Assembly: GCA_036867785.1 (NCBI GenBank) | Contig: CP145420.1 | Location: forward strand, 868,001 to 932,000 | Direction: 5' to 3' | Length of the DNA: 64,000 bases | Source: Plasmodiophora brassicae | Taxonomy: Eukaryota | Shown: one piece after another, positions 12,501 through 21,405 of the stretch | Layout: each line of letters opens with the position of its first letter | Numbering within the stretch: position 1 is the stretch's first letter | The notes under the pieces: model-generated | The model's input: the letters and a program-made list of their open reading frames with translations, nothing else | Database searches by the model: none | Told to the model about the DNA's origin: nothing | Translations under genes and position numbers: made by a program

Positions 12501-14156
12501 ATGATCTCGCAGTTCTACGTGCTGTCGCCGCGAGGTGACACCATCATTTCTCGCGACTGTCAGTGATTGGGCTCGGCTGCGCGTGCCCGGTGTGTGCTGA
12601 CGTGCGGGTGGCGTACAGTCCGGGGCGACGTCGCCAAGGGCACCGCCGACCTGTTCTTCCACGAGGTCAAGTTCTGGCGCGGCGAGCCGCAGGAAGCGCC
12701 GCCGATCTTCTCGATCGACGATGTGCATTACATGTACCTGCTGCAGAACGGGTTGTATTTCGTCGCCACGACGCGTTCGAACACGTCTGGGTCGTTCGTC
12801 CTGGAGGTCATCAGCCGCATTGCCCGCGTGTTCAAAGACTACTGCGGCGTCCTCTCAGAGGAGGCCATTCGTCAGAATTTCGTCCTCATTTACGAGCTCC
12901 TGGATGAGATGATCGACTTTGGCTTCCCACAGGACACATCCACCGAATTGCTCAAGGTGAAATGTGCGACTTCATTGAAACCCCCCATATTGACGCCGAG
13001 ATGCCACGATAGGCGTACGTGTTCAACGAACCCGTTGTCGTGCGTCGGCGCGATGGCGCATCCTCGATCGGCGCCAACATTGCGGGCAACATTCTCGGCG
13101 GATTCAAGCTTCCCGACATGAACCCGAAGACTGTGCCAAGCAACGCCGTTGACAAGCCGATCACGTTGGCCGGGTCGGGTGCGAAGCGCCGCAACGAAAT
13201 CTTTGTCGACATTTTCGAGCGCATCCACGTGACGTTCAACAGCGACGTATGCGATACGATCTGCAGGCTTCTCTGCATTGTCCCGAATTGACCAACGCCC
13301 CCTCAGGGAACCGCAATCCGATCGGAGATAGACGGGACGATCCAGATGAAGAGTTACCTGTCTGGTAACCCCGAGCTCAAGCTGGCACTGAACGAGGAAC
13401 TCGTGATCGGCTCGTCTGCGTCCGGCAGCAATTACGGGTCGATCGTGCTGGACGACTGCAACTTCCACGAGTGCGTCAGGACAGACGACTTTGACGCGCA
13501 TCGCTCGCTGCGATTCATCCCGCCCGATGGCGAGTTCGGCGTCATGAACTATCGAATGGCTGGGAATTTCCGTGTCCCTTTCCGCGTCTTCCCGTTCTTT
13601 GAAATGCCCACTGCGTTCAAGTGCGAGTTGATTATCAAGATCCGCGCCGACGTCCCCGAATCCAACTATGGCGCCAACGTCGTCGTATCGGTCCCCATGC
13701 CTAAAGCGACGTCAAGGTAATGCCAACTAACGTGCGTACCCGAGTTTCGTTTCTGACTGGCCCGCCAGCGTGTCATGTGACATGGATATGGGGGCAGTTG
13801 GGCAAGCCAACGAGTACATCGCCAAAGAGCATAAGCTGTTGTGGAGGATCAAGAAGTTCCCAGGCGGCAAGGAGCACTGTCTGCGGACAAAGGTCTGGCA
13901 ACGAGTCGTGTCCCTTTGTCGTCCGCGCGGCTGCTAACCGCTCCCGTTGCTCCACCAGATCGTTCTCGCGTCGTCCCACTCCGACTCGGTCCGGAAAGAG
14001 ATCGGCCCGATCAGCGTCGAGTTCGAAATCCCAATGTACAGCGCGTCCGGGCTCCAGGTTCGGTACCTGCGTATCTCCGACCAGCACAAGTCGTACAACC
14101 CGTACAGGTGGGTGCGGTACGTCACGCGTTCCGGTTCCTACATCTGCCGCCTATAA
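12501..14156 (+). CDS. AP4M1: AP-4 complex subunit mu
   Basis: MISQFYVLSPRGDTIISRDFRGD, KDYCGVLSEEAIRQNFVLIYELLDEMIDFGFPQ, NEIFVDIFER, LDDCNFHECV, PPDGEF and C-terminal PYRWVRYVT. Confidence 0.92.
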
Positions 14157-14336: not shown

Positions 14337-15327
14337 ATGGGCTTCGAAGCGCACGACGCTGGTAACCTGCTCAGCGCCCTCACGTTCTGGTTCCTGCTCG
14401 GGTACTACTCGTTCATTTGCCTCCGGTTCAAGCAGTACGACCATGCGACGAATGTGCGGCTGGCGGTGCTGAACATCGCCGCCGCCGTCATTTACCTGCT
14501 GTCGGCGCCGCTCCCGTTCATCCCGGGCGGCTGCGATGTCTTCTACAACGCAGTCGCCACTCTATGTATGTCTCAGCGGCGCGCCGCCCGACGCCCATCG
14601 CTGACTGGCCACTGTGATCGCAGACCTCGGATCCCAGATCCTGCTCTTCAACAACCGCGTCATCTTCTCGTTCTACCAGATGAACCGCACGGCGCAGGCG
14701 GTCCTCAAGGCGGTCCTGCTCAGCATCCTGACCGTCGGGTCGGTCACGACCACAGCCTACCTGGCCCTGGGGACCGAAATGATGGGCACGATGACGTCCG
14801 GCGAGTACGCATGCTACCTGGTTCGCAATGGGAGCGCGCAGAGTCACTCAGCGGCGTCAGACCTGGCGGTCACTGCGTCCATGATCGCCATCGTTGCCGG
14901 CATGGCGGTCATCTTCGCGTACGCGCTGATAGGGTTCCTTCAGTTCAAACGGGTGTCCGCGAGGAAGGAGAGCCTGACGACGCTATACCTCGTGCTGCTG
15001 TCGTTCGGGTCGTCTGCAATCAACATGTGCATGAACACCATGGACCAGATGAACATGCTGGTGGGCCTGTCCGCTGTTCGTAAAGTGCAAGAGGTGCTGG
15101 ACAGCGTCATCGCCCTGTCGTTGGCGTTGGTGGTCCACCGCAAGATCGCCGCCCGAGCGGCCCGGGTTCGTTCCGCCGCGACCGGCGAAACGTCACTACA
15201 GCGTGAATCGGGTCGCCAGAGCATCACGACGGCCAACACCGTTCGACCGAACCACAACCCCCAGGCCAAATACGCCGTGTCATCATCGGAACAGCAGGGT
15301 GCACTCGCGCCAGCCCGCCCTGAGTAG
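14337..15327 (+). CDS. 7-transmembrane GPCR-like protein, paralog A (intron 14566-14623)
   Basis: Seven hydrophobic segments, with QYDHATNVRLA, GCxxFYNA, NRVIFSFYQM, YACYL and MDQMNML shared with neighbouring paralogs. Confidence 0.8.
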
Positions 15328-15508
15328 ATGTCGGCGAATTACCAGCAAGCGGTCCCATGCCGGAACCATTGAGCACACATACAACTTCACATCCAGACGG
15401 CAGCGCCGACCTCGTTCAATAAACCACACACACACACTGCGAGCGGCTACCCGGGTGTCATTCGGCTCAGGCCCTGGCCCTGATTCCTGCAGACTCGGTC
15501 TTCGATTT

Positions 15509-15717
15509 ACGGGCGTGGAGGCATACGGCGTCTACAGCCGCTTGAGTGCTTTGGCGTTCTTGCTCCTCCTGGCATACTGCCCGTGTATCTGCTTACCGAC
15601 GCGACCAACGTCATGCTGTCGACAGCGAACGTCACCGTCGCCGTGGTCTACCTGCTATCGCTACGTCTGCCGTTCATCATGGACGGGTGCGACGTCTTTT
15701 ACAACGCTGTTATCGAT
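15509..15717 (+). pseudogene. Truncated, frameshifted paralog B of the 7TM family
   Basis: ACG in place of ATG, then GVEAY..LAFLLLLAY.CICL. A deletion/frameshift removes RFKQYD, followed by ATNV...VYLLS..LPFIMDGCDVFYNAV. No exon 2 is visible. Confidence 0.8.
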
Positions 15718-16002
15718 CGAAGTAGGGCGACAACGAACCTGGTTCGTAGGAGGCAGTATAGTTCATCCTGGTACACTTCAATGGGACGTCCATACCGCCT
15801 TTTCAATGGGTCGGACAGAGAGTGAGCAGAAGATATAGAACCGCGATATTGCCCAGGATCCTTGATTCAGGAAAGGATACCTTCTGATGGGCGCCCAGTT
15901 TGGATATTCGGGTCGGATCTCACCGACAAGCGATATATCGGTATCTACGTCGATCTGAACACTTCATCGATCGGCAGCTAGGGAATTGACGCCCTCACAG
16001 CC

Positions 16003-16953
16003 ATGGATGTGGAGGCATACACTGTAGGAAACGCGTTGACTACCTTGACGTTCCTGTTCGTACTTGGGTACTACTCACACATCTGCCTACGATTCAAGCA
16101 GTATGATCACGCGACCGACGTCCGGCTGGCTCTGCTCAACGTCGCTGCCGCCGTCATCTACTTGTTGTCGGCGCCTCTGCCTCTCTTCAAGGATGGATGC
16201 GCCGTCTTTTACGACGCTGTTGCCGGTCTATGTAGGACGACGGTCCAGATCGTTTGTATGTCGTCTGACCGCCGGTCTCCAACAGATATCAGTTCCCAGA
16301 TCATGATCTTCGGTAACCGCGTCATCTTCTCGTTCTACCAGATGAATCCGAAGGCGCAGAATACCCTGAAGGTGGCCGTGCTCGTGATGCTGGGTGTCGG
16401 AGCGGTGACATCCGCTGTCTACTTTCTGTCTGGGGCCGAGATGGTTGGCGCGATGGCAAGTGGCGAGAGCGCGTGCTATTTAATCCGCGATGGGAGCCCT
16501 CGTAGTCCCTCTGGGCACTTGGGCATGGTGATCACCGTGTCCATGGCCGTCGAGGTTGTCGGCATGGTCGTCATTTTCGCATTCGCATTGAACGGGTACC
16601 TGGAGTTTAAGAGGGCGGCAGGCAAGGAGGAGCGGTTAACGACGCTCAAGCTCGCGCTGCTGTCGTTCGGATCTTCCGGGGTCAGCCAGGTCATGAACAC
16701 ACTAGACCAGATGAACATGCTGACCGGCCTCTCCGCTCTTCGGAAGGCTCAGGCGATTCTGGACTCCATCATCGCGCTGACGTTGGCCGTGATGGTCCAC
16801 CGCAATATCGCAGCTCGGACCGCCCGGATCGGTTTGCAGGCCCAGTTTCCGCTCAACCGAATTAGACATGAAGACCAACCCGGTGCCGACGACGACACGC
16901 CGTTGGAACAGCTAGACCAGCCGATTCTTCTAGCAAGTGTCTTGCGGGCGTGA
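16003..16953 (+). CDS. 7TM GPCR-like protein, paralog C (in-frame intron 16232-16285)
   Basis: Same motifs and intron position as paralog A. Confidence 0.82.
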   Translation: MDVEAYTVGNALTTLTFLFVLGYYSHICLRFKQYDHATDVRLALLNVAAAVIYLLSAPLPLFKDGCAVFYDAVAGLCRTTVQIVCMSSDRRSPTDISSQIMIFGNRVIFSFYQMNPKAQNTLKVAVLVMLGVGAVTSAVYFLSGAEMVGAMASGESACYLIRDGSPRSPSGHLGMVITVSMAVEVVGMVVIFAFALNGYLEFKRAAGKEERLTTLKLALLSFGSSGVSQVMNTLDQMNMLTGLSALRKAQAILDSIIALTLAVMVHRNIAARTARIGLQAQFPLNRIRHEDQPGADDDTPLEQLDQPILLASVLRA

Positions 16954-17410
16954 AACAAGTTCGCAGCCGACGAGACAAATGCACCAGACCTGTGGCTGGC
17001 GATGAATGTGACAATCGCAGTGATGATCGCGGCGAGGATGATGATGAGGACGGAGGCGACGACGGACCTGTCGATCGTGCTCCGGATTCCGGACGACAAC
17101 GACGACCCGGACAGCAACGGCAACGGCGAGAGGCGCGGCAGAGCAACTTAGGCCAGACAATACTAAAGATGCCCTAAGTCGTAGAGAGCCGATCGTTTAC
17201 GTCCCGGAGGTGGCCGCACTCAAAGCAAGGTGACACGGGCGGCAGTACTTACCTTACCAGAAAGACGATGAGGTCGCCTGAGCGGAGTGGTTCACAACAA
17301 TGCAGACGGGCCGTCGTCGGACGACGGGCCTCACAAGGCGGTCGGGAAGAATCAAACTGTGGCACCCACTCGCTCACCCTTGGCAATCGAGTAAAACCGC
17401 TGATGTATCA

Positions 17411-18121
17411 CTACGCGCTTCGAAAGATGCCACGTCTGCAAACGGGACATTTCGCATCGTCATGCGCCTTCATCCAGGGGTCAAGGCATGCCGCGTGGAA
17501 GACGTGCTCGCAGGGTAGGCGCCGGACTGAGTGGGTATCGTCGAAGGCCGCAATGCAGATTGGGCATTGGTCGTGTCGCGTTGCTAGCTCGGCAAACGTG
17601 GTCAGCGGTACGCTAGCGGCTATTCTGCGCTCGGCGGATGCTTCAGCTTCCGCATCGATGGCGTTGTCCCTGTCCTGCGCCTCCGCGAAAATGCTACTAA
17701 CCAACAACTGGATTGCGAACTCGACGGAACGCCAAACGGCAAAGATCACAGCAACCGGAAGCCATGATGGAGTGGGAGAGTGACGGAGGAAGTGCAGTAC
17801 GAGAGCGTACGTTGCCAAGATCACGACCGTCAAAAGTAGGTCTGCGATTGGGGATGATCGGACAGCAAACAGGATGGTGAAGGCGGATATCGAAGCGACG
17901 ACGAGGGCCGTTTTAGAGACCTCGAACCCCAGAACCTCAATAGCCATATACGCGATCTGGGCAGCGCTGACGACCATCGACATGATACGCATACAACTGG
18001 ATTGGTCGAACACAAAGTTAGCAAGGGAAGCATCCCCCTCTCGAACCAGTATCGGCATGACGCGATACTGGACAATGCTACACTGGCACGAAGCGGAGGC
18101 GGCGGCGAGAGAAACCGGCAT
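17411..18121 (-). CDS. Transmembrane RING-H2 E3 ubiquitin ligase (start uncertain)
   Basis: CPICIAAF..VRRLPCEHVFHAACLDPWM..KCPVCR preceded by about 3-4 hydrophobic segments. Confidence 0.85.
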   Translation of the reverse strand: MPVSLAAASASCQCSIVQYRVMPILVREGDASLANFVFDQSSCMRIMSMVVSAAQIAYMAIEVLGFEVSKTALVVASISAFTILFAVRSSPIADLLLTVVILATYALVLHFLRHSPTPSWLPVAVIFAVWRSVEFAIQLLVSSIFAEAQDRDNAIDAEAEASAERRIAASVPLTTFAELATRHDQCPICIAAFDDTHSVRRLPCEHVFHAACLDPWMKAHDDAKCPVCRRGIFRSA

Positions 18122-18428
18122 CCGCCACGGTGTATAGTCTAAAATTAGGCAGGCGCGGACTGCGTCCAAGTGCCGGTGATGCTTCGTGGCGCTGCTGACT
18201 TCGCCCTGACAGTTCCAGGACACCAATTTGCTTACCGAGCTTTACCTGGTTCGAAGCTACGGAGCTTGCGACCTGGAAGTATACGTGTCTTCTGACCCGA
18301 TGATGGCGCGGGCTTGCCCGACTAACTGCTGTCGTGATCATATTCGGACCCCCAGTTGTAGAGTGTCACGTGCAATTGGTAGGCGTACCGATCCGCTGCT
18401 CAGTCACCTCGTGCGAAGTGGCGCTACT

Positions 18429-19360
18429 ATGGATATGGAAGCCCGGGACGTTGGTAACCTACTGTGTGTCTTGACGTTTCTGTTCCTACTGGCGTACTAC
18501 TCGTACATTTGCCTCCGAATCAGGCAGTACGACCACGCAACGAACGTCAGGCTGGCCGTGTTGAATATCGTGTCCGCGGTCATTTACCTGCTGTCGGCAC
18601 CTCTACCGTTCATCAAGAATGGCTGCGAAATCTTCTACAATGCCGCTGGGACTCTCTGTGGGTTGGCAACGTTTATGGAACGCGTTTTGACTGTCTGACA
18701 GATACGTTCACAGATCTCGGCTCCCAATTACTACTGTTCAGTAACCGTGTCATCTTCTCGTTTTATCAGATGGACCTCAATACGCAAGCCGTGCTGAAGA
18801 CGATCGTGCTGGCGATATTGGTTGCAGGATCGGCGACGACAACGGCATACCTCGGGATGCGGACAAACTTGGTGGGCGTGATGACACCTGGAGAATACTC
18901 GTGCTATTTGATTCGCAATGGAAGCGCCCAAAGCCTCTCGGGATACTCCCGCATTGCGGTCACAGTCTCAATGGTTGTTGTTGCTGTTGGCATGGGTGTC
19001 GTCTTCATTTACGCAGTGATTGGCATCATGGAGTTCAAGAGGACACCAACAGCGAGGAAACAGCACCTGGCGACGATCCATCTGGCGCTGTTCTCATTCG
19101 GGTCGTCAGCCATCAACCAAGCCATGAACGCAATGGACCAGATGAACATGCTGACAGGCCTGTCGGCTGCGCGTAAAGCTCAAGAGGTCCTGGACTCGGT
19201 TATCGCTCTGACGTTGGCCGTCATGGTTCACCGGAATATCGCCGCAACCCGGTCCTCTCGCATCCGCTCTACAGAATCTGCTCAGTCGAGGCATCGTCAG
19301 CAGGTGACGCAGGTTCGATCCGTAACGTCAGAGGACGCCGCTGTGGAATCTATTCTGTAA
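18429..19360 (+). CDS. 7TM GPCR-like protein, paralog D (1 intron)
   Basis: MDMEARDVGNLL...QYDHATNVRLA...GCEIFYNA / LGSQLLLFSNRVIFSFYQM...MDQMNML. Confidence 0.82.
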
Positions 19361-19578
19361 ACGATGCGCTTTGCGATTCACACACCTGTAGTCGCGCGCG
19401 CGCCTCAGGGGACATGCTCTTTCGAAGACTCCGCTGCACAACATTCGAATTTAGTAAAGCATTTTAGTCTGCTTTCGTCAACTTCAACGCTCGATGTTAA
19501 GACAGTGTACTCACATCGATCCTCAGACATATTGTACTATATATCGATCAGCTGCTGCTGTACCGGAGCTCGTGCGCG

Positions 19579-20557
19579 ATGGATGGCGTGGAAGCCCACG
19601 ACGTTGGAAACCTGCTGTGTGTCTTGATGTTTATATTCCTGTTGGTGTACTATTCATATATCTGCCTACGATTCAAACAGTACGATCACGCCGTCAGTGT
19701 CAGGCTGGCGGTGTTGAATGTTGTCGCTGCTGTCGTCTGCCTTCTATCAGCGCCTCTGCCTTTTATTCCCTCCGGGTGCGACATATTCTACAATGCCGTC
19801 GGCACATTGTGTACGACGACACTGCTCATCGTTCGCGGCTTCATCTAACCGAACTGCAATAGATCTCGGTTCCCAGGTCCTGCTCTTCAATAATCGTGTC
19901 ATTTTCTCCTTCTATCAGATGCGTCCTGGCACGCAGACCGTCCTAAAGGCGGTCGTGCTGATCATATTGGTGGACGGGACTGCCGCGACGACTACCTACC
20001 TCGCAGTACGAGCCAGACTGACGGGAACGATGTCATATGACGAATACGCATGCTATCTGGTTCGCATTGGAACTCCCCAAAGTTCCTCAGGATATTCCGG
20101 CATAGCAGTGACACTGCCAATGACCGTCGTTGTCGTCGGTATGGCGGTTATCTTTATTTACGCCTTTACAGGGTTCGTGGAATTCAAGAGGTCAACGGGG
20201 AAGAAAGAGAGCTTGAAAACGCTCTACCTTGCATTGCTGTCATTCGGATCCTCGGCCATCAACCAGGTCATGAACACGATGGACCAGATGAACATGCTGG
20301 CTGGGTTGTCAGCATTTCGACAGATCCAGAAGGTCTTGGACTCAATTATCGCCCTGACGCTCGCGCTTATGGTCCATCGCAATATCGTCGCCCGAGCGTC
20401 CAGAACAGCAGATGTCCGTCGACTTTCGAAAGCTCATGTGGCAAAACCTCTGCAGCAGGCGTCAGTACAGCGGTCTGTCACTGTAAACGCCGGCCATCCT
20501 TGCATACCACACGAACCTGCAGATGCTGTCAATAAAATGAGCATTCAATGGCGGTGA
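19579..20557 (+). CDS. 7TM GPCR-like protein, paralog E (1 intron)
   Basis: MDGVEAHDVGNLL...QYDHAVSVRLA...GCDIFYNA / LGSQVLLFNNRVIFSFYQM...MDQMNML. Confidence 0.82.
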
Positions 20558-20691
20558 GGGTATCAATGACCCGTCTGCGCTGTCAGGGCCAGAGGCGTGG
20601 TCGAGTGTCGACTCACAATCAGGACCGCCTCCTCAGACATTGTGCGGAACGCCGTGGCACGCGAAGGCGCGGCCGACGTCGCCGCCCCTGA

Positions 20692-21405
20692 ATGAGTGAC
20701 GACGACAAGCAGAAGAAGAAGGACGATGGCGGGTCCCCACTGGACTGTAACATCTGCTGGGATGTCGCCAAGAAGCCCGTTATTGTACGATTGCCCTCTT
20801 TCTGACTCGCCCATGGCCATGGCTGACGTTACTGTCCCGTAGACGTTATGCGGCCATATGTATTGCTGGCCGTGCCTGCATCAGGTTAGGACGATTCCTG
20901 GCAGGGATTGTAAAACAGGGATTGATTCGTGTTATCGGATAGTGGTTAGAATCAAACCAGACAACGTGCCCGGTATGTAGGGCGGGTGTGACGCGTGAGA
21001 ACGTCGTGCCCTTCTTCGGGCGGGGTTCGTCGTCAAGAGAGGATCCGAGGGATGACCCGACAATCCCTGAGCGACCCACCCGACCTCGCGAAGAGCCACG
21101 CCCTAGACGACGCGCCATGCCCGCGTTCTCCGACATCTTCCATACCGATTTCACAACGGGCGGCAACACAAATGGCGGGCTCACGTTCTTTCCGGGCCTA
21201 TTCGGTTTTCAGATGGTGCTGTCCGTGTTCGGTGGTCTCTCCTTGCATCCACGTCTGACATCAGTTGCAGAATTTTGGCGACGGTGCCGGTGCCAATAAC
21301 CAGCCGGCTGGTCGCAACGAGCCATACGATCCCGCCCGTGACCTGCTGTCGCGCGCCTTCCTGCTGTTAGGCGCGGCCCTGCTGATCTGTATCCTGTTCA
21401 TGTGA
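20692..21405 (+). CDS. RING-HC E3 ligase, RNF5/RNF185/RMA1 family
   Basis: Spliced [46 protein letters not shown], a Pro/Arg-rich linker and a C-terminal TM anchor. Confidence 0.88.

Follow-up and report, generated by a model that had tools for sequence, protein, structure and literature searches.

Clubroot ranks among the major diseases of brassica crops. Bi et al. in 2019 (doi 10.1186/s42483-019-0018-6) reportedly described signalling through G-protein-coupled receptors (GPCRs) in Plasmodiophora brassicae, together with an expansion of its class C GPCRs. Passages of reviews on this organism state that genes of the GPCR pathway are highly expressed in the second phase of infection and that an inhibitor reduced symptoms (PMC9180986, PMC7415369); GPCR signalling is reported there to be needed for clubroot (PMC9180986). 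In the literature searched we found no receptor-ligand pair for P. brassicae. Here we analyse a 64,000-nucleotide stretch of P. brassicae DNA (contig CP145420.1, positions 868,001 to 932,000; hereafter the window). It holds a tandem array of seven-transmembrane (7TM) genes at 14337-20557. Most likely, this array represents a plasmodiophorid family of orphan GPCRs that has not been described before and has expanded locally in P. brassicae. Literature searches, accession numbers included, found no description of the family, although the gene lists of Bi et al. may include these genes.

Described receptor families have characteristic motifs. Passages of one published account (PMC12716839) list E/DRY, CWxP and NPxxY as class A motifs, WCW in extracellular loop 2 (ECL2) and QGxxN in transmembrane helix 7 (TM7) as motifs of GPR157, and NxLQxxMNxL as the motif of RSF, carried by an additional short helix that sits between TM6 and TM7. 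Choanoflagellates, according to the same passages, have 76 receptors that fall in no cluster. Since protists commonly have orphan 7TM families, the surprise of meeting another is limited. How does the present family compare? It probably works like a GPCR, yet it is neither class A nor class C. We consider it probable that its members are GPCRs with a small-ligand site inside the membrane and a conserved face for binding the G-protein alpha subunit (G-alpha), and that they form a small, lineage-restricted orphan family. The array consists of the following:

14337..15327, plus strand: g1, intact 7TM gene, 310 amino acids (exons 14337-14565 and 14624-15327, intron 14566-14623; protein XXQ37219.1)
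about 15509-15731, plus strand: exon-1 pseudogene remnant, located by DNA alignment, blastn and profile search
16003..16953, plus strand: g3, intact 7TM gene, 298 amino acids (intron 16232-16285; protein XXQ37220.1)
18429..19360, plus strand: g4, intact 7TM gene, 291 amino acids (intron 18658-18713; protein XXQ37221.1)
19579..20557, plus strand: g5, intact 7TM gene, 308 amino acids (intron 19811-19862)

Gene models and alignment agree with the original prediction of four intact, co-oriented paralogues sharing an intron position. All four genes translate without stops, their cores are 60-69% identical, and each is interrupted at the same codon in TM3 by a single phase 1 GT-AG intron (58, 54, 56 and 52 nucleotides in g1, g3, g4 and g5). 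Public NCBI proteins of equal length, named to P. brassicae, match g1, g3 and g4. The array had been described as five paralogues in tandem, one of them a pseudogene; this fifth copy is only the exon-1 remnant, and a minus-strand RING-finger gene interrupts the row. The remnant lacks its start codon and carries a 16-nucleotide frameshifting deletion, as seen by DNA alignment and blastn. It is closest to g3 (143 of 213 aligned bases). A profile search found no remnant of its exon 2, and the 571 bases around it have no match elsewhere in the genome.

The GPCR-like fold is a modelled one. Two structure models give seven membrane helices; the positive-inside pattern in six close paralogues puts the N-terminus outside and the C-terminus inside, as had been predicted. 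The extracellular N-terminus is about 8 residues long and there is no large ectodomain. When the better model was searched with Foldseek, 49 of 50 rows were GPCRs, the best fold matches being those the original prediction expected; the nearest solved structures are MRGPRD/MRGPRX, at ~10% identity in structural alignments. Nothing in a viral structure library matched at an expectation value (E) of 0.001. QYDHA, NRVIFSFYQM, GCxxFY, CYL and VHR(N/K)I each occur in all four window genes, as claimed, but MDQMNML occurs in three, g3 having LDQMNML instead. A cysteine at the top of TM3 is present in 10/10 family members, and a cysteine in ECL2 is invariant across the six close paralogues and at or near one column in the family alignment. 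In the neighbourhood of the DRY position stands NR (SR in one member).

What might couple to these proteins? The P. brassicae genome (25 Mb) contains 85 G-alpha matches at 23 places, two of them apparently gene pairs (about 23-25 loci). We modelled residues 1-268 of g1 in complex with the best-scoring of these G-alpha proteins (307 residues, N-terminal exon missing). The complex scored 0.63, against 0.00 for the best of three controls; the runs agreed on at least 81% of contacts, and the predicted local distance difference test (pLDDT) of the partner was at least 68. The mark applied to this score is reached by 51/78 solved and 2/108 mismatched microbial pairs, and by 39/65 solved and 2/126 unrelated eukaryotic pairs. 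In the model, the last 12 G-alpha residues insert among receptor residues 33-39, 88-98, 184-200 and 247-254, zones that cover the QYDH, NRVIFSFYQM and VHRKI motifs. Entry of the G-alpha C-terminus into a cytoplasmic pocket is the usual geometry of a GPCR with G-alpha. Fifteen of the 28 residues at the modelled interface do not vary among the six close paralogues, compared with 94/262 overall. The docking supports a GPCR-like cytoplasmic face, and not the binding of this particular pair. One paralogue, on C14, has a G-alpha gene 2.7 kb away (C14:261011-265712), separated from it by a single gene; given the many G-alpha loci, this is a weak hint.

The six close paralogues are under purifying selection. 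The ratio of nonsynonymous to synonymous substitution rates (dN/dS) is 0.16-0.46 in 15/15 pairs, at synonymous distances (dS) of 0.71-1.42. Conservation is highest in the first intracellular loop (ICL1), ECL1 and TM3. A block from TM4 through ECL2 to TM5 is variable (identity 0.44 versus 0.67; 0/5000 shuffled minimum windows were equally low), and the C-tails are neutral (ratio of nonsynonymous to synonymous proportions, pN/pS, 0.97). This pattern fits duplication and divergence with one loss. To that extent the suggested birth-and-death evolution stands, but pairwise dN/dS among the six paralogues showed no positive selection.

These features suggest how the receptors would work. Each protein would be a bare seven-helix bundle with about 8 residues outside and its C-tail inside. 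QYDH (ICL1), NRVIFSFYQM (the end of TM3 and ICL2), the ends of TM5 and TM6, and VHR(N/K)I (the end of TM7) would together line a pocket on the cytoplasmic side into which the C-terminal helix of G-alpha fits. As there is no ectodomain, a small ligand would bind within the bundle under ECL2, a loop probably tethered to TM3 by a disulfide. Ligand or partner specificity among the paralogues may be set by the TM4-ECL2-TM5 block, which changes faster. The disulfide, the ligand site and signalling itself are inferred.

The family extends beyond the window. Single-protein searches of the genome recovered at least eight intact P. brassicae genes on four contigs. Besides the window's array (C11), C13 carries a tandem pair of close paralogues (51-56% identity) that share the intron, C14 a distant gene with the same intron position (26-28% identity), and C10 a gene with several introns. 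Own-genome searches with P0017 and P0020 as queries gave no match. When 1.84 billion representatives were searched with a profile, 10 proteins matched. One is from Spongospora subterranea (E 4e-9) and one is an unnamed NCBI protein (E 5e-6); the rest belong to P. brassicae or are unnamed pieces that match the genes above. Leave-one-out profiles gave the four distant members 54-108 bits, while the roughly 290 shuffles run for each reached 6.8 bits at most. Among 5.8 billion proteins, two alignment searches, each scoring 8000 candidates, found no new family member, and none of 111 pattern matches in a metagenome scan was confirmed as a relative. Judged by sequence, the family is confined to plasmodiophorids wherever the source is named. 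The C-tail of g1 resembles that of the first C13 gene (17/50 identical), which suggests that the C11 array and the C13 cluster derive from a g1-like ancestor. The tree, in which long branches meet, does not resolve the order of duplication. Another reading frame, 9.5 kb from the C14 paralogue, contains a short duplicate of that gene's 3' end (C14:251513-251593), with about 80% identity across 26 codons.

Both g1 and g5 are spliced in the sense direction. Our transcript evidence consists of contigs from four public runs, none recorded as RNA, whose RNA status was guessed by the tool, though neighbouring genes are spliced there; the depth of these contigs does not allow genes to be ranked, and sparse coverage of g3 and g4 carries no weight. 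The g1 intron is exactly skipped in contigs of two of the four runs, and the spliced g5 junction is found as matching loose ends in one. The introns of g3 (16232-16285) and one C13 gene (54 nucleotides each) and of the C14 gene (66 nucleotides) are stop-free multiples of three, so their retention would insert residues in frame within TM3. Antisense splicing occurs as well. Over g1, a 63-nucleotide minus-strand GT-AG intron in exon 2 (14926-14988) is skipped in one contig from one of the four runs. At 20132-20600, over the 3' end of g5 and near the start of the downstream RING gene, there are deep contigs and minus-strand introns at 20450-20507 (3/4 runs) and about 20514-20569 (1/4). They possibly represent an antisense RNA that comes from a two-way promoter. 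One run carries a g1 allele with 10 coding differences, of which five change an amino acid, the same five as in protein P0008.

Does the family belong to a named one? A Pfam screen of nine proteins at E up to 5 gave no match, including 7tm_1 (PF00001), class C, cAMP receptor, GPR157, Git3, class B, Frizzled, THH1_TOM1-3 and DUF7703. NCBIfam named nothing, and a PDB sequence search gave a single row, an antiporter subunit at E 0.15. Own-genome searches with 7tm_1, 7tm_2, Dicty_CAR and THH1_TOM1-3 gave no match, but controls were equally silent, so absence is not shown. Class A membership was rejected: PF00001 matches 0/9 proteins and the class A motifs are found in 0/10 members. The GPR157 motifs are likewise found in 0/10. 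For class C, hhalign against nine class C domains of the same genome gave a probability of 0.18%, with a score of 15.2 versus 14.5 for the best of 30 shuffles. Under NCBI's automatic naming, three proteins of the array are 'GPCR family 1 profile domain-containing' and those of C13 are 'family 3'. We rejected these labels ('family 1' for the C11, C14 and C10 genes, 'family 3' for those on C13) as evidence of class because close paralogues disagree and neither Pfam family matches. The family was first called unnamed; that is not entirely so, as these automatic GPCR names exist.

Several further observations bear on the GPCR reading. Hydrophobicity is weak in helices 3 and 6 (Kyte-Doolittle peaks of 1.0-1.5 in window genes), so the seven hydrophobic segments of the original prediction rest on the models. 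The GCxxFY cysteine and the NRV arginine had been placed at GPCR positions, but they are 20-22 residues apart in 10/10 members. In class A GPCRs this spacing is 25; both residues therefore cannot hold class A positions in strict register, and the claim is weaker than stated. As to the proposed basic helix 8, TM7 is unbroken in both models (226-270 and 242-267), which were built without a membrane, and neither separates a helix 8 from it. ECL2, which would be joined to TM3 by the putative disulfide, has a pLDDT below 50 in both models. E/DRY, CWxP and NPxxY are each absent from all ten members, leaving no class A activation motif. Because GPCR-G-alpha complexes have been solved, the score of the g1 complex may come from likeness to them. 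The proposed lineage-specific expansion is supported by plasmodiophorid-only occurrence, duplication and one dead copy, but it is small, with eight genes against about 70 class C matches.

Missing activation motifs also favour a quite unlikely alternative: proteins with a GPCR fold but no G-alpha signalling, serving for example as scaffolds of the endomembrane system or handling cargo, as in the TOM1/THH1, GPR137, GOST or RSF types. Language-model features from the Atlas place g1 nearest an unnamed oomycete cluster (0.94), a chytrid cluster named THH1/TOM1/TOM3 (0.92) and DUF7703 (0.90), and the Spongospora protein near DUF7703, THH1_TOM1-3 and GPR137_N (0.85-0.88). A relaxed RSF motif, N-x-(L/M)-..-(M/I)-N-x-L, lies between TM6 and TM7 in 6/10 members, the six close paralogues. 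The G-protein competence of GOST proteins is described as unproven in passages of PMC12716839. On the other side, the exact RSF motif occurs in 0/10 members, in neither model does a further helix separate TM6 from TM7, Pfam finds neither THH1_TOM1-3 nor DUF7703, and the modelled G-alpha helix docks on conserved cytoplasmic motifs, likeness permitting. Another seven-helix fold is very improbable, whether microbial-rhodopsin-like without retinal or a channel or transporter using the polar faces of TM3, TM6 and TM7. No conserved lysine stands in mid-TM7, the retinal-binding pattern is found in 0/10 members, and both the TM3 and ECL2 cysteines and the Foldseek rows weigh against such a fold. That the genes are decaying duplicates of little function, transcribed by read-through or antisense only, is hardly credible. 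The dead copy, the neutral tails, the spliced antisense contigs over g1 and g5, and the g1 allele would all suit decay. The dN/dS values, below 0.5 in every pair at dS of 0.7-1.4, have largely refuted it; four frames are intact, g1 and g5 are spliced in sense, and Spongospora has a homologue.

If the proteins are GPCRs, what do they sense? A role in sensing host or soil cues is a tentative suggestion. It is unlikely that they form a distinct plasmodiophorid GPCR class, with a TM3 shorter by about one turn between Cys and Arg, no ectodomain and its own G-protein motifs, acting as resting-spore or zoospore receptors for root-derived small molecules. If they do, the C11 and C13 duplications would track host-cue specificity in clubroot.

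Three neighbouring genes complete the locus:

12567-14156: adaptor-complex medium (mu) subunit, upstream flank, by Pfam
17411..18121, minus strand: unrelated membrane-anchored RING-finger gene between g3 and g4 (Pfam zf-RING_2, E 3.5e-14; start taken as the first Met, introns not checked)
20690-21400: spliced C3HC4-type RING gene, downstream flank, read from the sequence

A short repetitive hydrophobic frame, open on either strand, lies 3' of g3 (16954-17150); no gene was assigned to it.

The family matters because inventories based on Pfam catch class C receptors and overlook it. Eight small receptors without ectodomains make a short list of candidate sensors, of relevance to germination stimulants and control chemistry. 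In terms of GPCR evolution, they add one more orphan protist family.

Among known systems, class A differs in its 7tm_1 match, its E/DRY, CWxP and NPxxY motifs, its helix 8 (none is modelled here) and its Cys-Arg spacing. THH1/TOM1/TOM3, GPR137, DUF7703 and RSF are likewise bare 7TM proteins and are the nearest by language-model features. RSF, compared by motif description only, differs in its exact motif, and even the relaxed form is lacking in the four distant members. The class C expansion of P. brassicae shares with this family an organism and a pool of G-alpha subunits, and several class C and G-alpha genes there form local pairs. The 7TM family, without a large ectodomain, occupies other loci: none of the genome's 70 class C (7tm_3) matches falls on them.
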